64,000 bases of DNA from a virus (Duplodnaviria; Caudoviricetes), in the IMG/VR virus record IMGVR_UViG_3300028591_000143, positions 33,589 to 97,588 of that record; one strand, given 5' to 3'. The position numbers were made by a program, and so were the translations under genes. Below are positions 14,016 through 62,284 of the stretch, in pieces. The notes under the pieces were generated by a model. It was not told where the DNA came from and searched no databases. It was given only the letters and a program-made list of their open reading frames with translations. The number at the start of each line of letters is the position of its first letter. Positions within the stretch are counted from its first letter, which is position 1.

Positions 14016-14264
14016 TTAATAAGGATCTGACTTTGTTGAATATCGTATAAATCCCGTCCGTAGTGCTTCTTCTTTTGTCATAGTAAATACAATCTTAGTA
14101 TCCATTTTCTTATATTTTCCGGACGACATTAATACACCCTCACGGATTTTATAGGTTGTTTTGTTTCTCGTTTGTTTTCCTTGGGGGTATCGTAGTTTGA
14201 ATCCTATATACCCCCTGTCGGACTTTATTTTTATTCTTTTCTGTATTTTGCGTTTATTGTTCAA
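14016..14264 (-). CDS. Small basic hypothetical protein
   Basis: 82-aa ORF overlapping the helicase stop. Confidence 0.45.
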   Translation of the reverse strand: MNNKRKIQKRIKIKSDRGYIGFKLRYPQGKQTRNKTTYKIREGVLMSSGKYKKMDTKIVFTMTKEEALRTGFIRYSTKSDPY

Positions 14265-16354
14265 GGTTCAGTTAGGTCTTTTATTGTTTCTTCTTTTATC
14301 GAGACTATTAGATATCCTTTGTCTCGTTTTCCTGTCTCTTCGTTTTTTATGTCGACGGTTTTGATTATAAAGTAATCTCCAAGATCCACTGCCTTCGGAG
14401 TTTTTGAATACCCAACAGAATCATATAGATGTTTTAGTTTCTTTTTTATTTCTGTCTTTGTATATTTTTCTCCAACAGTAAAGGTATCTATAATTAATGT
14501 CCCTATATCTATTGATTGATTCCCTATTATTCCCTCATATGCTTTCTTCATGTCTGTTGCATCAAATCTTAAGGCTCTCATTCTATCTGGCCCTAAAACA
14601 ACATAGTAATTATTAAATGATTCAGGTAAATGTGGTAATAATGAGTTAGCAACACTTTCCTCTAGAGAACATAGGTACCGTAATTTATCAGGAAGGTATT
14701 TATAAGAATATAGTTTATCGAGATAAAAATTAATATCATCTACTTCTCCTATTGTTTTTGATAACGAAGAAAATACATTAAACCTATCCTTATAATCCAC
14801 TTGTTGTACATCGAAAGCCCTCATTTCTGATATCATCACCAATTTATTAAAAACTGGTTGTAAATCTGATCCAGCATGTTTATTTACTGCTACAAAATTC
14901 TTTCTATAACTACTTAATTTTGTTAACTCTAAATATGCACTTGCTAAATCATGTTTGGCACTACTATTAGAGGTATTATATGCATCGAGTAGATTATTAG
15001 TAACTCTCTCTTTATTATCTAAATAATCTTTAAACTTTTCAGTCGTAATTACTTTCGTATTGAGTTTATAAAATAATTCTGCTCTGTTTTTCCAAGGATT
15101 CTCATCTAATCTCTGTCTTCCAAGAATCTGTGGTAAGTCTAGAGTAATATCAACTGATAAACAATCCACATTAGCATCAGAAAATATAAAAGACCTGGCA
15201 TTAGTAGAATAAAAGTCTGCTCCAAGGTACACTGTTCTGGTACAAAGGGTAAACATTTTGTGGGGTTCTCCTTCTTTTGGAACAGTACCTATACACCTCT
15301 TTGTCTTATTTACTGACACATCTCCTGCTTTCTTTAGTGCAGTTTTTATTTTTCTCTCATTTTCATCATTTCCTGAACAAAGAATATTAGCTTCATCTAA
15401 TTTGAGACCACACTTTTTAATTATATCACAGAGATTTTTGACAGAATTAATATAAAACACAGCCTCTTTACTATATACTTCCTCAAAACTGCCATCTTCT
15501 TTTTGTCGTGTGAGCTTTTCAAATTTGCCCTCTCTGTAGGTATTAATGATCCTCTCTACTTCTCCAATCATACTTTTCTTTGAAGAAATTAGCTTGGTTT
15601 TTATATAAGGTTTAATAACTCTTCCTGGATTTTCACTAGTCCAATCAAGCTCATAGTAGGGAAGGTCTTTGTATTCATCAAGTTGTTCCAGATATGTGTC
15701 GATCATTGGTGTAGCAGAAAGATAAATTACATTATCTAATCCTTTTAGATTATACATGAATTCATTTTCAGTATCGGGCTTGAAGCGTGAATCACAGAAA
15801 ATACTCTGAAACTCATCAACTATAATTTTATATTTTTTTATTGAATCTCCAAGCGTCTCTTTTATCCTCCGAAAAGAATCATAGGTGACCATAAACTTCG
15901 GAGACCTATGGTATTTGATATAACAAAGTGAGACATGATCTTCTATCTTTTTCTTAAGTTGCTTGGTGTATTCCTCTGCCCTTTTCTTTGTTTTTTCTTC
16001 TTTTTCCTTCTCTGTGTCTCCATCTAATAAACCTTTCTTGGACTTTGAATCCTTTGAAATGTCCTTATCATAATTCTCAAAAGAGTTATATTCATTCCTT
16101 AGGTATAGTAGATTTTCTTGATCTTTATGTTGTTCCTCTTTATTTTCAAGAAGGACTAATCTAGGACTACAAAGAATGACTGGATAACTGTTTGTGAGCC
16201 AATACTCAGTATATCCACATCCGGTAATAGTTTTGTTCATTATGTAGGATTGATTCTCCGGAACTAGGTCCCTCAATCTTTTACCCTCTTCAAGGTTGTC
16301 CCAATCATTGATATACCTAATATCTCTGGGAACTTTAATTACGTATTTCTCCAT
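14261..16354 (-). CDS. SF2 helicase-like protein with C-terminal putative DNA-binding domain
   Basis: TGCGYT (I), VTYDS, IVDEFQ (II), LSATP (III), TRTVYLGADF (V), QILGRQR (VI); C-terminal KTPKAVDLGDYF. Confidence 0.85.
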   Translation of the reverse strand: MEKYVIKVPRDIRYINDWDNLEEGKRLRDLVPENQSYIMNKTITGCGYTEYWLTNSYPVILCSPRLVLLENKEEQHKDQENLLYLRNEYNSFENYDKDISKDSKSKKGLLDGDTEKEKEEKTKKRAEEYTKQLKKKIEDHVSLCYIKYHRSPKFMVTYDSFRRIKETLGDSIKKYKIIVDEFQSIFCDSRFKPDTENEFMYNLKGLDNVIYLSATPMIDTYLEQLDEYKDLPYYELDWTSENPGRVIKPYIKTKLISSKKSMIGEVERIINTYREGKFEKLTRQKEDGSFEEVYSKEAVFYINSVKNLCDIIKKCGLKLDEANILCSGNDENERKIKTALKKAGDVSVNKTKRCIGTVPKEGEPHKMFTLCTRTVYLGADFYSTNARSFIFSDANVDCLSVDITLDLPQILGRQRLDENPWKNRAELFYKLNTKVITTEKFKDYLDNKERVTNNLLDAYNTSNSSAKHDLASAYLELTKLSSYRKNFVAVNKHAGSDLQPVFNKLVMISEMRAFDVQQVDYKDRFNVFSSLSKTIGEVDDINFYLDKLYSYKYLPDKLRYLCSLEESVANSLLPHLPESFNNYYVVLGPDRMRALRFDATDMKKAYEGIIGNQSIDIGTLIIDTFTVGEKYTKTEIKKKLKHLYDSVGYSKTPKAVDLGDYFIIKTVDIKNEETGKRDKGYLIVSIKEETIKDLTEP

Positions 16355-16454
16355 ATATGTAATAGTTTTTAATTATTTTAATTTCTGTTTAATACAGATT
16401 CCAGTTTTAATAAAGGAGCTTCTTATATAGAAACTTCCTTAAATATTTTTATTA

Positions 16455-16471
16455 CATATATAAGGGTTTGA
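16455..16471 (-). promoter_or_regulatory. Phage promoter-like motif CCTTATATATG
   Basis: TCAAACCCTTATATATG about 100 bp upstream of the helicase; recurs in about 12 intergenic sites. Confidence 0.6.
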
Positions 16472-16690
16472 GAAAAAATGAGGGTAAAAAAGTGGTCGAA
16501 GAGGTTTTGTTAGAAGAGAAAATAACTAAAAACCCCTTAAAATACCCCTAAAAGTGCTATTTTAAGTGGTCGCTGCGACAAAAGGGTGTGAAACAAAGGA
16601 GCTATCCTAATATAATACCTATCTATTAAAAATGTCGCAATATTATGTAAGAGTACTTTATTTTAAGTGGTCATAAAAAATTGAGGGTAC
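16455..16690. repeat. Promoter-plus-repeat block similar to 49937-50070
   Basis: CATATATAAGGGTTTGA…AAGTGGTCG…AAAATACCCC…AAGTGGTC…AAAAAATTGAGGGT in both places. Confidence 0.8.
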
Positions 16691-16969
16691 ACTTTTTCGA
16701 GCTAACAGAGGAGCATCCGGTAATATAATGGAACAAAAAGTGTATTTAGTGCAGTTATAAAAAAGTAATATTGTTTCCCTCGTTATAATCCCCTTTGGGG
16801 CTTACAACTTCGAAAATTCCCCAATAATTTTGTAGAAGAGGCGTAGCCTATTCCTACAATGATAACCCTGTAGCAACTCAAGTGGGTCCCACTGAAACCG
16901 ACGTAGGAGGTTTTATGGGCTTGAGTTGTGGAAGGGTGTCAGGAGGGAAGCTCCTGTGTTAGCGAGAAT

Positions 16970-17016
16970 TAGGTCCGTAGTTGTAATCGAATACCACGCC
17001 TTAAAGCGCTACGGAC
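16970..17016 (-). ncRNA. Putative tRNA-like three-way-junction element (type A)
   Basis: P1 UCCGUAG/CUACGGA, CGC/GCG hairpin, UGGUA-UUCGAU-UACA, then C-CUA. Confidence 0.6.
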
Positions 17017-17083
17017 GATATGAAAAAACATATAATTAAAGTTCCCGACCGATATCACATCGACCGAGAGTGTGATTAGGTCA

Positions 17084-17830
17084 TTAGAGGTTATCCCAAC
17101 TTCTTTTGAAATGCTCAAATGCCAAACTAAGTTGGACATCAGATCTATCGGTTCCATCTGCATCTACTCCGTTTTCCAGGTTTTAATAATAAATTTTGTT
17201 TATTACTTAGACTATATCTTTTTCTTCTGTACATAGTCGTTGAGCCCATAAAAGGGTTGCTGATTAAGTTTTTCCTTTTCCAGCAGTTCTCAGATTTCTT
17301 AATATTTTTTTTATATTAAGGACAAATTATTTATCGAGCGGAGCGTCCATAATCACGCAGTTATAGAAGTGGATAGTACGGACATCTAGACGAGAGGAGT
17401 TAGTGAGATAGAGTTCGCAATCCGTAACCAAGTCATCTTTACGGAAGCTATATTTAGTATCTCTATCAGCAATTTTTTGTTTCCAGTCATCCACGAAATA
17501 GGAGATAGCCTGATCTTCTCTATCCACGAAGCTGAGGGTGAGCTGACCGGAAGTATTCTGACCTGTTTGTTGTCTAATCACGAAATTTCCTCTCATTCTT
17601 TTTTCGAAGCCAGACACAGAACTATCTATACCGACCTGAACGCTATTAAGTCTTGCGTTTATAATAGTGTCGCCGGGGTAATAAACAATTCTAGGGCCGT
17701 TATTCAGGAACTTAAATTCCCACATATCACCCCTTAGAAACTCTTTATTATCGTCTCTATAGGTGGATGTGTAGTCAATAAAGTGCATACGTCCATTACT
17801 TTGACGGACTAATTCTGTTACTGTTGCCAT
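17084..17830 (-). CDS. Tail tube protein, two exons (17333..17830 and 17084..17176), 196 aa spliced
   Basis: Tube-like QLTLSFVD…FYNCVIMDAPLD is continued in frame by ENGVDADGTDRSDVQLSLAFEHFKRSWDNL* after intron removal. Confidence 0.8.
17177..17332 (-). ncRNA. Miniature group I intron (156 nt)
   Basis: Exon ends in U with P1 U•G wobble; P (AACUGCUG), Q (AAUCAGCA), R (UCAACGACUA), S (AAGAUAUAGUCU); terminal G. Confidence 0.9.
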
Positions 17831-20301
17831 TATTCACTGTAATTAATTGTTATATCGAGACCTATGTTATTGTTTATTAGGTCTTTTACTCCTGTTTCTA
17901 TTCTCATCGCCAGTTTATTTTGGGTATATGAGATAGAGAAATCGGTTATATTTATGTAATCTATTATAGAGAAGCTTTGTTGGAGATTGTTTAGTATAGT
18001 TTCTAGGATTTTTCTAACCTCGATATCACTTCTTTTAGCCAAGTAGTTCCATTTTTGTTTTTTCAATTCTCTAGTTATTTTACTTATAGCGAATCTCATC
18101 CAGGCAGTACTATTATAAACCTCCCCGTTGCAATAGTCTTTGTAATAATAGATTTGGTTATTTGTGGTTAAGTAGTTGCTTTTATAGTGTTTTAGTGTTT
18201 TTTCGATTTCTTCTCCGTCTTCTGTATATGGATTAATAAGAAAATCCAGGTAATTTATATATTGGACAGAGACGGAGTATATATCAAAGAATAGACCTGT
18301 GAGATAAATATAATAAGCTGGTCTAGGTCTTCTATAAACTGTCATATCCTGGAAGAAATATATGAGTCTATTATCAAGGTCGCCGAGGTAGTTATAAATA
18401 AAATCGCCCTTATTTTCTGCTACCTCTATAGTTTCGATATCAGTTTCTTGAATCAAACTATCATCTCCTTTTTTATAATATTCATCATTACGTTTCCAGA
18501 GTATATATGGTTCTAGATCTTTATTCCATTTAGGTAAATTTTCTACTTCATTGATTATAAAAGTGCTTGGATTATTTTGGATAAGTACTTGAAAATCCCA
18601 ACCCTTAGCATAGTCAAGGAATTTTTGTTGATATTCTAGGTCTGATAATTTGTTTGTGTAGAGTTTTTTATCTGGGACCAAGAAATAATCTGGACTTATA
18701 TTATCTTCCGAGAACATCACACTCATAGCTTTCCAATACATTTTAGGGTTATAGTTTTCAGTCTTAGCTCCCTGTAATATCCAATCTCCTTCACGTAATC
18801 CAGAATTTATATTATTAAATCTTAAGTGAACCAGTTTAGATTCCTTAGATACCCTATAGTCCAATCTTTCTTCTCCTGGTTCTGGATGAAGTTTACCCTC
18901 AAATATCTCAGAGTAGTTAAACCTAGAAATTGTGATTTGGTATACTTCTCCTGGGGTTACTGTAAAAACACTAAATTTTATATTATCCGTATTATAATCC
19001 TGGTCGCTCTTTCCTATAGTTTTGCTCCATACTTCAAATCCCCAATCATTTTCAGGGAGTTGAGAGCATAGAAGGTTTTGTGTTTCTCTATAATCAGCGG
19101 CCATATTAAAACCGGGAAAATCAAAGTAATAATCGATAGGGATAGGAATTTGGGAATATATTTTATCATCCTCAATATAATATCCTAATCCTTCTATAAA
19201 TCCAAGAAGATCTCCCCATCTTGTTATATTTTCTCTTCGATTATTTCCTGAATCATCTCTTTCTTCTGGAATAAACCTTTTAGAAACCCTATTATCAACT
19301 CTTTCGGATTCTTTAAGCCATCTAGATCCGTGGAAATTGTAATATTCATTATTATATAAATATTTTTTATTTGTATCTAATTCTGGTACAAGTTCATCTA
19401 CCTCTCCACCATCCTCAAGATCATCCCAGTCTGCATCATTATAAGCCAGATAGTAATTATTTTTTGTAATAGGATCTGGAATAACGAGATAGTAATAGTC
19501 GGGGAGTGTATCTTGTTCAGCATTGTTATAAGAGATAGATGCACAATAGGTAGAGTTCAGGTTTTCTAGTTTTATAGGTTCATCCGGGTTTATAGTAGGA
19601 ATATTAGAATAATTCTTACTAAAAACGCCGAGTCTTTGTTCATGATATTCAGGATTACATTCGATTATATTTCCTGTGTATTCTGGTTTTGGTATAAGTA
19701 ATGTATCTCTATTTTCCTGAGATATTGTAGTTTCTTCTGTATTTTGTGGAAGATCTTTTTCAGAAACCCAAGAATCAAAAATCCATATATACCAACAACC
19801 AATACTATCATTAGAAGTTATCCATTGTCCTCCTATATTCACAACCCAACAATTCTCCGGTACAACAAAGTACTTAGTATCTGGGTCGGGATTTTCAGGA
19901 TAAGTCTCTACCTCTCCACCGTCCATAAGAGAGTCCCAATCTACCCTAAGACCTCCGACCCAATATTTAGTACTAGGATCACCGGAGGAGGGTAAAGATT
20001 CGGGGGTTGGATAAGTTTCATTAGCGGGAGTATATTCTGAAAGATTTATATATTGATCATCCTTTATTTTTTCCTCAGATACAGGTTTATAGAGATAAAG
20101 GGATATATTTCTTTCTAGGAGTTCTGAGAAATAATCATAGTCTGTGAAGTTTTTTCCGAACCATATATCAAGTTCATCTTTATTTCGAATTATCACAGGT
20201 TTTTCATAACTTAACCCAGAATCAGTAACTTCAGATAGAATAATATAGTCGTTAGTATTCTGTAAATATTGTATACGTATTGAATTAAGTTTTATGTACA
20301 T
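17830..20301 (-). CDS. Second tail-sheath-like protein
   Basis: N-terminal KPVIIRNKDELDIWFG and C-terminal AISKITREL…VRKILETIL…QNKLAMRIE parallel the ends of 27877..30345; adjacent to tube. Confidence 0.55.
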   Translation of the reverse strand: MYIKLNSIRIQYLQNTNDYIILSEVTDSGLSYEKPVIIRNKDELDIWFGKNFTDYDYFSELLERNISLYLYKPVSEEKIKDDQYINLSEYTPANETYPTPESLPSSGDPSTKYWVGGLRVDWDSLMDGGEVETYPENPDPDTKYFVVPENCWVVNIGGQWITSNDSIGCWYIWIFDSWVSEKDLPQNTEETTISQENRDTLLIPKPEYTGNIIECNPEYHEQRLGVFSKNYSNIPTINPDEPIKLENLNSTYCASISYNNAEQDTLPDYYYLVIPDPITKNNYYLAYNDADWDDLEDGGEVDELVPELDTNKKYLYNNEYYNFHGSRWLKESERVDNRVSKRFIPEERDDSGNNRRENITRWGDLLGFIEGLGYYIEDDKIYSQIPIPIDYYFDFPGFNMAADYRETQNLLCSQLPENDWGFEVWSKTIGKSDQDYNTDNIKFSVFTVTPGEVYQITISRFNYSEIFEGKLHPEPGEERLDYRVSKESKLVHLRFNNINSGLREGDWILQGAKTENYNPKMYWKAMSVMFSEDNISPDYFLVPDKKLYTNKLSDLEYQQKFLDYAKGWDFQVLIQNNPSTFIINEVENLPKWNKDLEPYILWKRNDEYYKKGDDSLIQETDIETIEVAENKGDFIYNYLGDLDNRLIYFFQDMTVYRRPRPAYYIYLTGLFFDIYSVSVQYINYLDFLINPYTEDGEEIEKTLKHYKSNYLTTNNQIYYYKDYCNGEVYNSTAWMRFAISKITRELKKQKWNYLAKRSDIEVRKILETILNNLQQSFSIIDYINITDFSISYTQNKLAMRIETGVKDLINNNIGLDITINYSE

Positions 20302-33431: not shown

Positions 33432-33622
33432 TTTCCTAATCTCCCATCGTTTAATTCTGTTCTTAGTTTTCTCATCTCTTTATTTAAATCAGTTCCAGCC
33501 ATTTGTCTTTGGGTATCTAATCTTCCTAGTCTATCAAAATCCTGATCATATTTTCTCCCACGCCTAAATCCTGAAACTCCTGTAGTATTAAGAGTCTTTG
33601 AAAACTTACGTAATATAATCAT
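33413..33622 (-). CDS. Small leader-bearing protein
   Basis: MIILRKF|S; overlaps both neighbours. Confidence 0.65.
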   Translation of the reverse strand: MIILRKFSKTLNTTGVSGFRRGRKYDQDFDRLGRLDTQRQMAGTDLNKEMRKLRTELNDGRLGKWQDTD

Positions 33623-55913: not shown

Positions 55914-55999
55914 GCTCTGGTGATGGAATGGTAGACATGAGGGACTTAAAATCCCTTGCCTGTAAAGGCGTGTGGGTTCAACTCCCACCCGGAGTACCA
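55914..55999 (+). tRNA. tRNA-Leu(TAA)
   Basis: Cloverleaf with long variable arm; loop CT-TAA-AA; encoded CCA. Confidence 0.95.
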
Positions 56000-56005
56000 T
56001 TATAT

Positions 56006-56033
56006 AAAATACTACTGCTAAAGTAGTATTTTT
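56006..56033 (+). terminator. Terminator
   Basis: AATACTACT/AGTAGTATT plus T run. Confidence 0.6.
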
Positions 56034-56053
56034 CTCATTTCCTTATATATGTT

Positions 56054-56260
56054 ATGAAAAAATTAATGAAATCTGTAGTAATTAATACTTGGTGTGGTAT
56101 ACCAGATAATTTGAAGGATGTCAACGATGATGAGGATTGGTGGGTAACCCAATTTCATTTTCTACCATTCATTATGTATCAACTATGTGACGAAAATAAA
56201 ATAATCTTTGGGTGGTTGTTTTGGTCTGTATCAATAAGATGGCCCCGTAGAGATGAATAG
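56054..56260 (+). CDS. Small Trp-rich hypothetical protein
   Basis: 68 aa directly after promoter-like motif at 56041. Confidence 0.6.
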   Translation: MKKLMKSVVINTWCGIPDNLKDVNDDEDWWVTQFHFLPFIMYQLCDENKIIFGWLFWSVSIRWPRRDE

Positions 56261-56411
56261 GTTAAATAAAAAGTTAAAGAATTATATTAGATTATACTGA
56301 AGAAGATCAACTCCATCATGGAGAAAGATGTAAAATACTATTAAGAGATTAGTAGTATTTTTTTTTCGCCTTTATTTCCTTATATTTGAAATAAAAAAAT
56401 TAAAAGAAAAT

Positions 56412-58520
56412 ATGAAAAATATCTTACCAAAATTGCAAGCACAGTTTGATAGAATGTGTGCGACAGGTAAATTATTTCAAAGTAGTATTTCTGGTCATGA
56501 GTTAGCGGATACATATTTGCTCGGTTTTGTCGAGGATCCTGTTTTTAGAGATCCTGAGAGTTCTGTGCATAATTGTAATTCCTGCAAGAACTTCATACAC
56601 CGCTATGGTACTATCTTGGCCATTGATGCTGACCTTAATATTATAACTCTGTTTGATATTCCCGATATTGACGAGGAGTATAAGGAGTCGTTTAATTTAA
56701 TGTCGGAAGAGCTTAGAGAGGCACCAATCAAAGGTGTTTTTGTAGAGACTTATGACAATCTTTCTGAGAAATTATGTTATGAGAGGCCTATAAAGAAAGA
56801 TCAAGAGAAATACTGGTTAGGACTTCAGAAAAATGTGAAGTGCTATACAGAAGAAGAGGCTAATAAATTTGGTGTAGTAAAGCCAAATGAAATCAGAGAG
56901 TTTTATCATCTTTCTGTTCAGATTCCTCGACAGTTCATAGATTTTAGTGGAAGCAGTGTGGAGGCAATACAGGGAAGATATTACGATTCTTTCATGGTTT
57001 TCAAACGGACTATGGAAGAGATACCACTCGACACAGTTTATCTTGTCAGAGATCTCATTAACCAAGGATCACTTCTCGATGGGGATGCACATCTTCATAA
57101 GATTGAGGGTATTATTCCAATGCTCATAGAATATCAGAAAGTACCAGTAGATAAGCGAGAAATCTGGTGTTGGGTAAAGTCGGTTGGGTTCAAATATGCC
57201 AAGTTCAAGAATGAACTTATTGGTGTATTATGTACTGAGCTGGCCGAAGGTAGGGAATTGAATGAGGCATGTAAAGCCTGGAACATTAGAGTTGATCCAG
57301 CTAATTATATGAAAGCCACAGCCCCTATCACTAAAAAACAAATTGAGGAGGCTAGAAAATTTGTAGTAGATAACGGTTATGAGGAATCGTTTTCTCGGAG
57401 ATGTGCTACTATTGAGGACATCAAAGCTTCGGACATTCTTCATATCAATTCCGGAGATGGTACTATTAAGAAAGTATCTATTTTCGATGATGTGAAGCCA
57501 ACCCATACTCTCCATAAAAGAAGTGAATTCGATAAGGTTGAGACGGTTGGAATAGAGAAGTTTATGTCAGATATATTACCAACTTGTACTTCGGTTGAGG
57601 TATTTCTTCTTAACCAGCACAAGAGAAACATGGTAACTCTCACAACTTCCGAAAATCCGGATAGTAAACCAATCTTTAAGTGGCCGAACAACTACTCTTG
57701 GACTTATGCCGGAAATCTAGCCGGTAAGTCTCAGATTAAAGAAGCTGTTAAGGCGGCAGGTGGTATTGTAGATTCTCCGTTCCGTTTCTCGATTATGTGG
57801 AATGAAGATGGAAGGGATATTGTAGATCTTGACGCTCACTGTGTTGAGGGAAATAAAAACTATGAGATCTATTATGGGAATAGGAAAGTTCTATCTCCCC
57901 TCGGAGGAACTTTGGATGTAGATATGATTCGTCCGGCAACAAAAGGAGTAGAAAATATCTACTACGAATCTATACCGAATGGACAATTTAAGTTCTTCAT
58001 CCGCAATTATGATGGTGGGAAACATAAGGATTGCCGAGCAGAACTCTACATTGACGGAGAGACTTATAGTTACTACATTAACCACAAGATATGCAGTGAC
58101 GAACTCATTGCTGTTGTGACTATTGAAAATAGTGTCGTGGTGAACATAGAGCAATCTAAGTATCTCACCGACAGTAACGCAACGAGCACTGAGATTTATG
58201 GTCTAGAGACTAATCAGTTCCACAAAGTAAATCTTATCTGCCTTTCTCCTAATCATTGGGAAGGAAAGGTAGGAAATAAGCACTACTTTTTCATGTTGGA
58301 GGGATGTAAATCTCCTACTAAAATCAGAGGTTTCCATAATGAGAACTTGATTCCGGAACTATTTGCTCACCGAAAAGTCATGGAGGTTTTAGCAAATACA
58401 ACGATGGTGGAGTCAACCGATAATCAGCTTTCAGGGCTTGGGTTTGATGCTACTGTTCGAGATGAAGTAATTGTGAGACTTAAAGGATCACATAATAGAG
58501 TATTAAAGATTCAATTTTAA
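56412..58520 (+). CDS. Large hypothetical protein with a YfaP/DUF2135-like domain
   Basis: HNCNSC N-terminal motif; DLDAHC…GGTLDVDM…GVENIYY. Confidence 0.7.
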   Translation: MKNILPKLQAQFDRMCATGKLFQSSISGHELADTYLLGFVEDPVFRDPESSVHNCNSCKNFIHRYGTILAIDADLNIITLFDIPDIDEEYKESFNLMSEELREAPIKGVFVETYDNLSEKLCYERPIKKDQEKYWLGLQKNVKCYTEEEANKFGVVKPNEIREFYHLSVQIPRQFIDFSGSSVEAIQGRYYDSFMVFKRTMEEIPLDTVYLVRDLINQGSLLDGDAHLHKIEGIIPMLIEYQKVPVDKREIWCWVKSVGFKYAKFKNELIGVLCTELAEGRELNEACKAWNIRVDPANYMKATAPITKKQIEEARKFVVDNGYEESFSRRCATIEDIKASDILHINSGDGTIKKVSIFDDVKPTHTLHKRSEFDKVETVGIEKFMSDILPTCTSVEVFLLNQHKRNMVTLTTSENPDSKPIFKWPNNYSWTYAGNLAGKSQIKEAVKAAGGIVDSPFRFSIMWNEDGRDIVDLDAHCVEGNKNYEIYYGNRKVLSPLGGTLDVDMIRPATKGVENIYYESIPNGQFKFFIRNYDGGKHKDCRAELYIDGETYSYYINHKICSDELIAVVTIENSVVVNIEQSKYLTDSNATSTEIYGLETNQFHKVNLICLSPNHWEGKVGNKHYFFMLEGCKSPTKIRGFHNENLIPELFAHRKVMEVLANTTMVESTDNQLSGLGFDATVRDEVIVRLKGSHNRVLKIQF

Positions 58521-58568
58521 AAAGCTTATTCTTGCTCTAGGATTTAAAATCACTAAAATATAAGAAAT

Positions 58569-58949
58569 ATGTACAAAAAAGCTGCAAAATTAAAACTCAG
58601 ATTTAATTCTCCTAAGGGATTATTATCTGTTGAGCAATTATTCGACCTCACTACATCAGATCTAGCCAATCTCATTAAGAAGGTTAATGCTGAGATCAAA
58701 AAAGAGGAGAGGGTCGATGATGATTTAGCCTTCTTAGAGGGAAAGGATGAAGTAACCTCTCTAAATGTTCTCAAATTTGACATCTTGAAGGATATTTATC
58801 TTACTAAATTGAAAGAGAGAGATGATGCTGCAACTGATCAAGAGAAGAAGGATTATCGACAGAGAATTGCTGAGATTATTAAGAAAAAGAAAGATCAGGA
58901 GTTGGAGAATTTATCCATCGAGGAGTTGGAGAAAAAGCTAAACGAGTAA
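58569..58949 (+). CDS. Hypothetical coiled-coil protein
   Basis: KLRFNSPKGLLSVEQLFDL…LSIEELEKKL; co-transcribed with 56412. Confidence 0.75.
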   Translation: MYKKAAKLKLRFNSPKGLLSVEQLFDLTTSDLANLIKKVNAEIKKEERVDDDLAFLEGKDEVTSLNVLKFDILKDIYLTKLKERDDAATDQEKKDYRQRIAEIIKKKKDQELENLSIEELEKKLNE

Positions 58950-59023
58950 TTGTTTTTTGTTTTCGGGAGGTTAGGGATTATTTTCTAACCCCCTTTATTT
59001 TAGTTAAACATACACAATGAAAG

Positions 59024-59557
59024 ATGGATGAAAAAGAAAAATCATTATTAAATATTGTATTATTAGATCTTCTTCCTTATGATACTAAGGTTGCAATAGA
59101 TTTTAAAGAGTATTTAGAGTGGTTACCTGACGGGGAACCCTACAAAGAGAAGCTAGAATTTGCCCTTAAACACCGAGGAAAAACTATAGAAGACATATCA
59201 AAGGAGCCTAATATATTATATTCATATCCATGTAAGGGAAGATTCGGAATGCTTAGGGGATATGAAAACGAAGAATATGGAGTTCCGGTTGAGTTTATTA
59301 GACCATATCTCCGCCCAGTTTCAGACATGTCAAATGAGGAAATTTGCACATTATTTAAGATTCTTGAGATAGATATAGATGGTAATGATGAGAATTGGAT
59401 AAAAGTAAATGATTGTTTGGGCATAGAGTTCTTCTTTCCTACTGGAAAGTTTATAGGAGATGTTGCAAAATCCTATGACTATCTTAATTCAATTCATATT
59501 AACTACAGGGGCCTTGAACTAGCTTTAGAAGCCCCAAAAAATATGTATAATAAATGA
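59024..59557 (+). CDS. Hypothetical protein
   Basis: RPYLRPVSDMSNEE…HINYRGL; related to 55082. Confidence 0.75.
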   Translation: MDEKEKSLLNIVLLDLLPYDTKVAIDFKEYLEWLPDGEPYKEKLEFALKHRGKTIEDISKEPNILYSYPCKGRFGMLRGYENEEYGVPVEFIRPYLRPVSDMSNEEICTLFKILEIDIDGNDENWIKVNDCLGIEFFFPTGKFIGDVAKSYDYLNSIHINYRGLELALEAPKNMYNK

Positions 59558-59652
59558 CAGAGGAAAAGAAACAAACATTAATAAAGGTTTTATAATGTTC
59601 CTTTTCCATGTTTAAAATGTCCCTTCGATTGTTATGAGAAAAATTAATTAAT

Positions 59653-60195
59653 ATGATTGTAGATATTAAACTGCGAGAAAATGCCTTAGATAGACTTAGG
59701 CAGAAATGTAGAGAATGTCTTCCAGAGGAGAATGAAGAAGATAGGGAAAAGTATCTGAAGGATGCTGTACCTATTCTTTATGACTATGATAGTGTCCGGA
59801 TTGATGAAGGAATTTTTAACTTACCTAATAGTATATACTATCATATGTTTATTGAAGGTCTCGAAAATAAAAAACCAAGTGATTATGATGTCTTATTCTT
59901 TGATGATTGGTTGGGAGATAAAGAACCTTATGGTCTTGCAGATAACATTGAGCAGATAAAAGAATATTTATCTCCTTATTATGAAGATAAAGAACATAAT
60001 TATTTTATCAATGTATATAGAGTTGATTGGAATCCAGAAAATAAGGGTAAAACTGGGGGATTTAGACCATATAAGTGGGGACCTTATTTGGGAACATATA
60101 ATCAAATAGATGAGTGTGAATACTATGATGATTGTGAGTTTCCGGAAGATTATCAAGGTTATTTAATTCATTTTCATGTTTATATGATTAATTAA
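59653..60195 (+). CDS. Hypothetical protein
   Basis: 180 aa; YGLADN.EQI…GFRPYKWGPYLG. Confidence 0.75.
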   Translation: MIVDIKLRENALDRLRQKCRECLPEENEEDREKYLKDAVPILYDYDSVRIDEGIFNLPNSIYYHMFIEGLENKKPSDYDVLFFDDWLGDKEPYGLADNIEQIKEYLSPYYEDKEHNYFINVYRVDWNPENKGKTGGFRPYKWGPYLGTYNQIDECEYYDDCEFPEDYQGYLIHFHVYMIN

Positions 60196-60229
60196 TACCT
60201 AGTTTTAAAGATAACTAATTATAATTAAT

Positions 60230-60653
60230 ATGGAAAATAGTAAAAAAACAGTTTAGGTCACAGTGGACAACTTTTGGGGAATCATGTAAACTTGTTGATG
60301 CAGGTCTTCCTAAGGAGACGGCAGATATGTGGTATGATCTAATGGATGGTGATGAACCAGAAGATAAAATAGCATATCTAGATGTAGATAGGTGGCTTGT
60401 AGAGAGTTATGAAACATATCCATGTTGGTCTTTGGGTTCACTAATGATATTATTACCAAAGATAAAAAATGAGGATGAAAATGAGTGTTATCCTGTCATA
60501 ACTCAAGAAGTGGGTACTTCCAAATGGCATTGTATCTATACTGGCACTTCACTTCATACAACAAGTAGGTATGATACACCTATAGAAGCCATTATTGACA
60601 TGATATTATGGCTTTTAGAGAATAAAATGGAGTTAAATATTCCAACCGTATAA
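60230..60653 (+). CDS. Hypothetical protein, apparently frameshifted at an A7 run (60242-60248)
   Basis: Frame of 60327 extends upstream to 60249 without a start; ATG at 60230 is one base out of frame. Confidence 0.6.
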
Positions 60654-60662
60654 CTCTTAAGA

Positions 60663-61040
60663 ATGACAAAGATGACAACGCAAACACAAGAAATTATTTT
60701 AAACGAAAGTAATACTGGTTTTACATTTGATGGTAATTACTATAACTGTTCATATATTATTGAACGTGATAAAAAATTAATTTTACAGGAAGCAGATATA
60801 TCACATCCGGAAAATATAGAAAAATTATACGTAAGAGAGTCATTATCACCTCGTAAAGTACATATATATCTAGGTGAGGCTGGTGATCCTGTAGCAATTA
60901 TGATTATTTATACTATAGATTATAAAAATAAAGGTGAGGGTAGTAGATTAGCATGCGGTGATTATTATATTATAGAAATACATGATGATAGTAGTAAGAT
61001 TTTACTTCCTCATTTCTATCAGGCCAGTATCTGTTGGTGA
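60663..61040 (+). CDS. Hypothetical protein
   Basis: 125-aa ORF. Confidence 0.65.
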   Translation: MTKMTTQTQEIILNESNTGFTFDGNYYNCSYIIERDKKLILQEADISHPENIEKLYVRESLSPRKVHIYLGEAGDPVAIMIIYTIDYKNKGEGSRLACGDYYIIEIHDDSSKILLPHFYQASICW

Positions 61041-61137
61041 TTATAAATCAATATAATGGGAATAACACTCACCTCAAATCCTTATAAATGTGAAAAACTC
61101 AAATAAAAATTAAAGAATAAAAAAATAATAACAATAT

Positions 61138-61209
61138 TGCGGGGTGGAGCAGTGGTAGCTCACTAGGCTCATAACCTAGAGGTCGTTGGTTCGAATCCGG
61201 CCCCCGCTA
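61138..61209 (+). tRNA. tRNA-Met(CAT), initiator-like
   Basis: Cloverleaf, CT-CAT-AA loop, unpaired 1:72. Confidence 0.9.
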
Positions 61210-61226
61210 CTAATAAAATAACAAAT

Positions 61227-61442
61227 ATGAAAAAATTGTTATTAATTTTAACGTTATTCGTTTGTTGTGGATGTAGTAGTAATACAGAACAACAGCAGAG
61301 TGAAAAAGTAATTGACATTTCCAACGACGGGCGGTTTGAGGTTGTCAGAATAGGCAATCATCAATATATCTTATATCGAACTGGATATAAGGGTGGAATA
61401 TGTCACTATCAAGACTGTGATTATTGTCATGGTCGACGTTAA
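61227..61442 (+). CDS. Small lipoprotein-like protein
   Basis: MKKLLLILTLFVCCGC signal/lipobox; GGICHYQDCDYC. Confidence 0.7.
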   Translation: MKKLLLILTLFVCCGCSSNTEQQQSEKVIDISNDGRFEVVRIGNHQYILYRTGYKGGICHYQDCDYCHGRR

Positions 61443-61518
61443 AAAAAGTGCATCCCTCATCAATAGGGAAGGCAATCGAGGGTCCTATAGGCAAGATCTT
61501 ATAGGTCCCTTGCTGTTC

Positions 61519-61603
61519 GGAAAGATGGCAGAGTGGTCGAATGCGGCGCTCTTGAAAAGCGTTGATCTGCGAGGATCCGGGGGTTCGAATCCCTCTCTTT
61601 CCG
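61519..61603 (+). tRNA. tRNA-Ser(TGA)
   Basis: Long variable arm, CT-TGA-AA loop, G73. Confidence 0.95.
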
Positions 61604-61614
61604 CAAATATAAAT

Positions 61615-61688
61615 TGTTCTGTAGGCCAGTTGGATAGACCGTCAGATTTTGGTTCTGAATGTCGCTGGTTCGAGTCCAGCCAGAACAA
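61615..61688 (+). tRNA. tRNA-Gln(TTG)
   Basis: TGTTCTG/CAGAACA acceptor; TT-TTG-GT loop. Confidence 0.9.
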
Positions 61689-61695
61689 CAACTAT

Positions 61696-61778
61696 GACTA
61701 TGTGCGCGAGTGGCTGAAACGGGCGGTCCGCAAAACCGTTAGGGAGACCTCACGTTGGTTCGAATCCAACCATAGTCA
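61696..61778 (+). tRNA. Atypical tRNA, anticodon GCA (Cys) on a Tyr-like body
   Basis: Loop CC-GCA-AA, long variable arm, A73. Confidence 0.75.
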
Positions 61779-61784
61779 CTAAAA

Positions 61785-61858
61785 CGGGTATTAGCGAAGT
61801 TGGTATCGCGCTTGGTTTGGGACCAAGAGATCGCAGGTTCGAGTCTCTGCATACCCGA
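61785..61858 (+). tRNA. tRNA-Pro(TGG)
   Basis: CGGGTAT/ATACCCG acceptor; TT-TGG-GA loop; one extra base in T-arm. Confidence 0.9.
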
Positions 61859-61967
61859 CAATTTTCAACAAATCATGTTTTTTGTTTTAATAAATCCTTT
61901 CATACTTTGGTCATAATTTGTTTGTATTTAGGAGGTTATTAAAACATATGTATATTGTTTTGTTTTC

Positions 61968-62007
61968 AGACACTGGGATAGTCTTCGGGCTATTCTGGTG
62001 TTTTTTT
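61968..62007 (+). terminator. Terminator after tRNA cluster
   Basis: ACACTGGGATAGTC-TTCG-GGCTATTCTGGTGT plus T run. Confidence 0.7.
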
Positions 62008-62133
62008 CAAAAACCCTTCAAACCCCTTATATATGAAAAATAGTTCGCTTTTTGTTCTTTTTCTCTTCTTAACCCCTGAAATCCTTATATATGAAATAAA
62101 AAATCATAACACAAATAGAAAAACTGATGAGAT

Positions 62134-62208
62134 GGTCCGTTCGTCTAGTTGGCCTAGGACGTAAGATTTTCATTCTTAAAATCGCGGGTTCGAATCCCGC
62201 ACGGACTA
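62134..62208 (+). tRNA. tRNA-Glu(TTC)
   Basis: Cloverleaf; TT-TTC-AT loop. Confidence 0.9.
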
Positions 62209-62212
62209 CAAC

Positions 62213-62284
62213 GCTTTGGTAGCTCAAAGGCAGAGCGATTGACTGTTAATCAATAGGTTGGGATATCGTAATTCCCCCAAAGCG
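62213..62284 (+). tRNA. tRNA-Asn(GTT), non-canonical T-loop
   Basis: GCTTTGG/CCAAAGC acceptor; CT-GTT-AA loop; G73. Confidence 0.85.

Follow-up and report, generated by a model that had tools for sequence, protein, structure and literature searches.

The tail tube gene of a giant gut-type tailed phage (Duplodnaviria; Caudoviricetes) is interrupted by a 156-nucleotide (nt) insert on the minus strand (17332..17177) of a stretch of 64,000 nt, here called the window, which comprises positions 33,589 to 97,588 of IMG/VR virus record IMGVR_UViG_3300028591_000143. We place the probability at roughly 0.85 that the insert is a genuine group I intron that carries no open reading frame (ORF) and belongs to the small-intron family of the "Jug" type of jumbo gut phages. 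It is also very likely, on evolutionary grounds, that the intron is spliced in vivo. A group I anatomy, homology to other small introns, covariation in the helices, precise empty insertion sites and conservation of the second exon were all observed. The novelty is one of architecture, namely, a maintained core of ~155 nt without the helix P8, since the small phage intron family itself has already been published.

Excision of the insert restores the tail tube gene

The annotated tube ORF (17830..17327, minus strand, 167 amino acids [aa]) ends in DAPLD-K followed by a stop codon, extending 6 nt (AAA TAA) into the insert. Exon 1 (17333..17830, minus strand) comprises 166 codons, of which the last is GAU for Asp (17335..17333), and was identified by its homologues and by a match to PHROG 45 (tail tube; E value of 2.7e-8). 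The insert begins with AAAUAA and ends with CCUG; its excision produces a GAU-GAA junction (hyphens within nucleotide sequences mark the splice site or the corresponding empty site) and restores 30 C-terminal residues. These are encoded by exon 2 (17084..17176, minus strand; 30 codons and a stop), the codons of which (17176..17087) translate as ENGVDADGTDRSDVQLSLAFEHFKRSWDNL. The tube protein had no match in Pfam, a phmmer search of it against PDB sequences returned noise only, and GenBank phages yielded no blastn match to the region. Foldseek, when applied to the tube model, retrieved the tube proteins of P1, T4, AFP, PVC and other contractile systems (E values of 1e-7 to 1e-4). Exon 2 accounts for a loop and for the beta-strands at the C-terminus of the tube protein: in the AlphaFold model of an intron-less twin, residues 178 to 193, all of them from exon 2, form the two C-terminal beta-strands with a predicted local distance difference test score of ~88, and a truncated product is therefore predicted to be without core strands of the fold.

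The insert keeps the frame (156 nt, or 52 codons) and contains four in-frame TAA codons, so that read-through cannot join exon 1 to exon 2. Two other routes without RNA splicing, in which ribosomes bypass the 156 nt in the manner of T4 gene 60 or the two exons yield separate polypeptides, would be in keeping with a stop codon almost directly after the break and a gap that is divisible by three. They are nevertheless scarcely credible on several lines of reasoning: (i) the take-off and landing codons are unmatched, GAU standing before the gap, CUG preceding exon 2 and GAA being the first codon of exon 2; (ii) the gap is three times that of T4 gene 60 (~50 nt) and holds the four in-frame stops; (iii) exon 2 has neither a start codon nor a ribosome-binding site of its own; and (iv) the insert shows every group I hallmark, with covariation, as set out below.

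A protein database search with exon 1 returned 390 relatives, and in nearly all of the best 120 of these (195 to 196 aa in length) the protein runs contiguously through DAPLD-ENGVDADGTDR. The original prediction had expected PLD-ENG to be contiguous in intron-less orthologues, which is what both these homologues and DNA alleles display. One homologue, P0001, has 98% identity to the window exons and is encoded on a 628-nt metagenome DNA scaffold (L199) that has no room for an insert and reads CTAGAT-GAAAAT at the junction. GAT-GAA is likewise uninterrupted in the intron-less alleles L204 to L210, which are long genomic contigs and encode exactly the protein expected from the spliced form of an intron-bearing allele, L002. 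Four database entries of 166 aa (P0004, P0010, P0011 and P0015) end in DAPLDK because the intron was not recognised by public gene calls, and the same annotation artefact will affect other genes that introns split in these phages.

Anatomy of a group I intron without P8

Group I introns are textbook ribozymes, the conserved core of which is drawn as paired regions P3 to P9. The insert (17177..17332, minus strand) was assigned to this class from its sequence, the Rfam model RF00028, covariation and folding, and the junction, RF00028 and the orthologues bear out the exact boundaries of the 156-nt intron in the tube gene that had been proposed from the sequence alone. The proposed P1 with a U•G pair, P2, P3, P4, P5, P6, P7, P9 and terminal G are each present. 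Intron position i corresponds to window coordinate 17333 - i, and all elements lie on the minus strand.

P1 (17321..17335) pairs exon GAU (17335..17333) and intron AAA with the guide UUUGUC (17326..17321), that is, G-3, A-2, U-1 and A1 to A3 with U7 to C12, and places U17333•G17323 at the 5' splice site; its loop, UAA, is the apparent stop codon of the annotated ORF. The UUU of the guide could also pair with GAA of exon 2 as P10. The P2 hairpin (17298..17320) has 8 base pairs (bp; positions 13-20/28-35) with the strands CUUAAUAU/AUAUUAAG and a loop of seven A residues, and it carries compensatory changes among orthologues. The 5' strand of P3, UCUG (17291..17294), pairs with 17229..17226 (positions 39-42/104-107). 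The P4-P5 arm (17258..17285) consists of P4, UGCUGG/UCAGCA (48-53/70-75), and P5, AAG/CUU (56-58/65-67), closed by the loop GAAAAA, and it is followed by P6, CCC/GGG (17245..17256; 77-79/86-88), with the loop UUUUAU. J6/7, CUCAAC, and the 5' strand of P7, GACUA (the R element; 95-99), occupy 17234..17244 and match the Rfam consensus. J7/3, UGUA, and the 3' strand of P3, CAGA (17226..17233), were placed by covariation and the orthologues, and the 3' strand of P7, UAGUC (the S element; 17210..17214; 119-123), by its Rfam match and the orthologues. The remainder (17177..17207), defined from orthologues and folding, contains P9.0, the P9 hairpin (17205..17187), the 3' tail and the terminal G. P9 is UAAUAAA/UUUAUUA (128-134/140-146), and the terminal G (omega G) is position 156, at 17177. 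P9.0, for which no covariation is available, pairs AG at 17207..17206 (126-127) with CU at 17179..17178 (154-155) in all six intron-bearing orthologues.

The gap between the 3' strands of P3 and P7 is only the 11-nt single strand AGAAAAAGAUA (17215..17225), at the place usually taken by J3/8, P8 and J8/7. It consists of the 7-nt AGAAAAA and of GAUA, the conserved end of J8/7, which adjoins UAGUC. A P8 hairpin therefore cannot form in it, and the intron, which the original prediction had described as apparently without a proper P8, lacks the hairpin between P3' and J8/7 that belongs to the textbook core of P3 to P9. The core is otherwise canonical, with its P3-P7 pseudoknot, its P4-P6 arm and conserved J3/4, J6/7 and J8/7; in place of P8 stands a purine-rich linker of 7 nt that runs directly into J8/7. 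Pairing of L6 (UUUU) with the A-rich linker was considered as a substitute for P8 and dropped, since L002 has no complementarity there.

The search with an Infernal group I model that had been suggested as a check gave an alignment of RF00028 to the insert from end to end, at 21.3 bits and below threshold (E value of 0.0067 in a 1.1-kb search), in which the P8 block is reduced from 59 nt to 1 nt. This cmscan alignment matches the J3/4, J4/5, J6/7, R, J8/7 and S elements as AAxUGCxGGAAA, UAAUCxGCA, UCAAxGACUA and AAGAUAUAGUCU. RF00028 was not matched in the Rfam gathering scan of the whole window, in the scan of the phage's own genome or in the E-value scan of eight related loci (29 kb). The minimum free energy (MFE) fold from ViennaRNA (-30.7 kcal/mol, z of -4.09) recovered P1, P2, P4, P5, P6, P7 and P9. 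P3 is missing from the MFE fold and from RNAalifold because it crosses P7 in a pseudoknot, and pairs in the alignments, P3 and P7 included, were counted in pseudoknot notation in place of RNAalifold.

Orthologous introns and flanking exons

Orthologous introns of 154 to 160 nt occupy the identical site after GAU in L001 (identical to the window intron), L002, L200, L201, L202 and L203. These six intron-bearing orthologues come from at least five samples, with tube alleles down to 83% protein identity, and exon 2 is intact in all six; between the window and L002, the differences in exon 2 amount to 6 synonymous and 5 non-synonymous codons, and neither a stop nor a frameshift is among them. In the alignment of the orthologues (A5), 98.9% of cells are paired, including the P7 pseudoknot and P9.0, compared with 30 to 52% for slid partners. 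P2 (A-U to G-C and U-A to G-C), P6 (C-G to U-A) and P9 (A-U to G-C) each contain compensatory changes, and in P7 of L201 a single C to U change keeps a G•U pair. P1 is invariant in the six, and the spacer between P3' and J8/7 is constant at 7 nt, reading AGAAAAA, AGCAAAU, AGAAAAU or AGCGAAU. The intactness of exon 2 in six diverged alleles and its C-terminal beta-strands lend indirect support to the claim that the intron must splice, which the original prediction had based on the essential nature of the gene.

The flanks of the intron-bearing alleles L002, L200 and L201 read CTCGAT-GAAAAC, and most intron-less alleles have the synonymous TTAGAT-GAAAAT; one intron-less allele (L003, which is the same as L207) has flanks of the intron type. 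This pattern, as far as the sequences tell, fits a recent gain or loss of the intron together with co-conversion of flanking markers during homing.

A class of P8-less introns within a larger family

We searched viral contigs for a pattern of P7 followed by J8/7-P7' with a gap of 8 to 20 nt and found more than 117 matching stretches with more than 30 distinct spacers. In a MAFFT alignment of 24 diverse P8-less relatives that was not fitted to any structure (A2), covariation was found at five of five P3 pairs, five of five P6 pairs and two P4 pairs; 90.8% of cells pair, compared with 29 to 45% when the partners are slid, and none of 500 shuffles attained the observed score. P7 and J8/7 are invariant in A2 because the pattern search required them. 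The spacer in this class measures 5 to 10 nt ahead of GAUAUAGUC, and since P3' is pinned by covariation, these nucleotides cannot be a helix; the loss of P8 is thus a property of the class and not a misreading.

A covariance model built from A2 (R1), with the window intron in its seed, scores the latter at 106 bits and finds it as the only copy in both the window and the 97.6-kb record. In 16 related tube loci R1 has 53 matches, and in 860 kb of related loci it has 367, with independent members scoring 29 to 113 bits. Jug phage tube genes contain introns with P8 that R1 likewise matches, at 29 to 79 bits, which shows that P8-less and P8-bearing introns are homologous; given such sisters, the absence of P8 is a derived loss and no ground for exclusion from group I. 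In most family members the distance from P7 to J8/7 is 27 to 35 nt, with room for a small P8 of 6 to 7 bp, and the P8-less form accounts for a minority of copies (2 of the 47 distinct ones in unbiased tube loci). A rough tree based on the P4-P7 core (114 sequences), which is weak as it rests on ~80 nt, requires 15 or more changes of the P8-less state, compared with 27 when labels are shuffled, and the P8-less copy of L093 has 91% identity in the P4-P7 core to a P8-bearing intron of L037. To judge from these sequences, the pattern suggests repeated loss or modular exchange of P8 within the family. The window intron, described as near-minimal in the original prediction, is indeed real and of unusually small size, yet it is no lone oddity, being a member of a prolific, published family in which P8 loss recurs.

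P8-less copies are also found in RNA polymerase genes of related jumbo phages. Two (L082:8061-8557 and L092:3920-4129) lie in the beta'-like gene near the motif NADFDGD, and another (L086:1471-1679) lies in the beta-like gene. The P8-less intron of L082 (184 nt), the junction of which was verified, has a P1 of GCCU/GGGC with U•G, a terminal G and a guide that differs from that of the window intron and matches its own exon, and the allele of L092 that lacks this intron reads continuously through AMSMP-QFI.

Several findings nevertheless weigh against a functional intron, or weaken parts of the case for it: (i) the RF00028 score of 21.3 bits is far under the gathering score of 50; (ii) P1, P3 and P4 show no variation among the six orthologues; (iii) for P7, covariation offers nothing more than a single C to U change by which G•U pairing is retained; (iv) P5 and P6 have only 3 bp each and the RNA has 31% G+C, so that autonomous folding may be weak; (v) intron-less alleles encode an identical protein, which makes some intron copies recent arrivals and the conservation argument weaker for those copies; and (vi) a search for RNA-derived contigs with the spliced tube gene junction found none. 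As regards the last point, the contigs that encode the spliced-type protein all look genomic, being long contigs or METAG records, and are therefore intron-less alleles and not evidence of splicing.

The absence of a core helix, together with the low Rfam score and the lack of spliced RNA in that search, is what one would expect if the insert were a decayed, splicing-dead remnant and the phage either defective or equipped with a truncated tube protein. We consider this highly improbable, given that exon 2 stays in frame and intact in six diverged alleles that have accumulated both synonymous and replacement changes, that the helices contain compensatory changes, that truncation would, according to the structural model, remove core beta-strands of the tube fold, and that equivalent P8-less introns reside in RNA polymerase genes.

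Proposed splicing pathway and the question of autonomy

For an intron of this anatomy, splicing in the tube pre-mRNA would follow the usual group I course. P1, with its U•G wobble, would arise from pairing between the guide UUUGUC and the terminal GAU of exon 1, and a guanosine bound in P7 would attack 3' of the P1 U. The terminal G (17177) would next occupy the guanosine site, aided by P9.0 and P10, and the exons would be ligated as GAU-GAA. With the intron gone, translation would no longer meet the early AAA-TAA stop and would continue through the 30 C-terminal residues of the tube protein.

Whether the RNA does this alone is a separate matter. That the P8-less introns of 154 to 160 nt are fully autonomous ribozymes is a tentative proposition, to which we give somewhat less than an even chance. 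Rather unlikely, in our estimate, is the alternative that the intron is real and removed in vivo but non-autonomous, needing a phage or host protein (a maturase or chaperone) or an RNA acting in trans to fold its core. Such a need would make sense of the short, AU-rich helices, of the fact that no GNRA tetraloop-receptor pair is evident and of the missing P8, which, as is established from the Azoarcus, Twort and Tetrahymena introns, ordinarily forms a stack with P3 and receives peripheral contacts; Jug phages, moreover, have many free-standing endonuclease genes (PMC12880540). On the other hand, the window intron has no ORF, no candidate cofactor was identified, J8/7, J6/7, J3/4 and P7 all agree with the consensus, and the loss of P8 in several sublineages and in different genes suggests that the core tolerates it.

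If they are autonomous, the P8-less introns would rank as the smallest self-splicing group I introns in nature, P8 would be dispensable where a short purine-rich strand joins P3 directly to J8/7, and a new minimal scaffold would be at hand for structural and engineering work. An evolutionarily maintained class of ~155 nt without P8 tests the minimum size of the group I core and offers a compact scaffold for structure determination, trans-splicing or circular-RNA engineering. There is also a practical consequence: standard pipelines overlook P8-less introns, the Rfam score being 21 bits where 50 are required, and essential genes of jumbo gut phages are as a result deposited in truncated form. 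The surprise is limited by the prior publication of the small-intron family (PMC12880540).

Relation to known introns

The intron of Azoarcus sp. BH72 tRNA-Ile (IC3, ~205 nt) is the usual benchmark for small size, no smaller well-studied self-splicing group I intron being known. It resembles the window intron in being compact and ORF-less, in the P1-P2-P3-P9 organisation of the core, in its terminal G and in a similar J8/7 and P7, but its P8 is complete and serves as the receptor of the L2 tetraloop, its RNA is rich in G+C and highly stable, and its location is a tRNA anticodon loop; the window intron is ~50 nt shorter, has 31% G+C and no P8, and interrupts a phage gene that codes for a protein. 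Location in essential phage genes, polymorphic presence between related phages and the U•G and terminal-G rules are shared with the window intron by the group IA introns of phages (T4 td, nrdB and sunY; orf142 of Staphylococcus phage Twort). They differ in their size (250 to >1000 nt), in having P7.1/P7.2 and P8 and, often, in carrying homing endonuclease genes, whereas the window intron has a J7/3 of 4 nt and lacks P7.1/P7.2, P8 and an ORF. Literature searches for P8-less or smallest group I introns yielded no relevant description, and introns of this class without P8 are not known to have been described before.

The closest published relatives are the introns of Jug phages, jumbo gut phages of Bacteroides/Phocaeicola (360 to 402 kb) in which 2513 group I introns were reported, with a mean of 18.5 per genome and a mean length of ~206 nt (PMC12880540, Sci Adv 2026; preprint PMC12363816). 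The small Jug introns are ORF-less, ~150 to 250 nt long and located in essential genes, and they belong to the same family as the window intron by sequence and structure, R1 matching both; the window intron is 50 nt under the ~206-nt mean and without P8. The phage genomes are of a similar kind (360- to 400-kb phage contigs), the window record being 97.6 kb and an estimated 26% complete. The window phage, with a tube ~71% identical to those of Jug loci, is a relative and not necessarily a member of the described Jug groups. Metatranscriptome reads support the splicing in vivo of 37 of 76 predicted Jug introns that were tested (PMC12880540). The same report likens the introns to GIR1-type internal ribozymes and gives neither secondary structures nor a mention of the tube gene (PMC12880540). 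GIR1, the lariat-capping ribozyme, lies inside a twin-ribozyme intron, has no exon-pairing P1 and does not ligate exons; a GIR1-type identity was rejected for the window intron, since this borders directly on its exons, possesses a P1 with U•G as well as P10 and a terminal G, and leaves a restored ORF when removed. Many group I introns in core genes have also been described from the Zeta and Delta groups of crAss-like phages, which infect gut Bacteroidota (PMC7886860). Those introns were detected via intron-encoded protein domains and are thus large and ORF-bearing, unlike the ORF-less intron here, and crAss-like phages are a different lineage from the window phage.

Introns in related tube genes and neighboring features

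Related tube genes on 200- to 400-kb IMG/VR phage contigs are split at further places, namely, after residue 48, after residue 117, at the site of the window intron directly after the D of PxD, and after DGTDRAD. R1 matches can be densely packed, with six or seven in tandem within ~1.8 kb of tube gene (L044:1353-3155, L065:1353-2941 and L030:1878-3260), the maximum of seven in one tube gene region being that of L044. Such pile-ups in Jug-type tube genes leave micro-exons between the introns of a 195-codon gene; in L037, one of them measures ~9 to 12 nt (ENG) and another ~27 nt (ending in TEDGTDRAD). In L011 (2080-2230), a small-intron match of 79 bits stands directly after residue 191 of an otherwise unsplit tube gene and marks a further insertion site on the C-terminal side.

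Within the window, the tube gene is flanked upstream by the gene of an 823-aa protein (17830-20301, minus strand) and downstream by that of a 697-aa protein (14261-16354, minus strand). Neither protein had a Pfam or PHROG match at an E value of ≤0.01, and the "sheath" label of the former is therefore presumptive. An ORF-free gap (16355-17083) includes a segment (16770-17083) that adjoins the tube stop codon downstream, is G+C-richer than its surroundings and folds very stably on the minus strand (-98.9 kcal/mol, z of -4.9) and on the plus strand (z of -3.9). It matched no Rfam family; in L001, conservation is 91% over the initial 248 nt, beyond which the sequence is rearranged. A structured RNA of unknown type or a cluster of terminators may reside here. 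Farther away, at 55914-62284, eight tRNA genes are clustered on the plus strand (Rfam tRNA, 45 to 63 bits).
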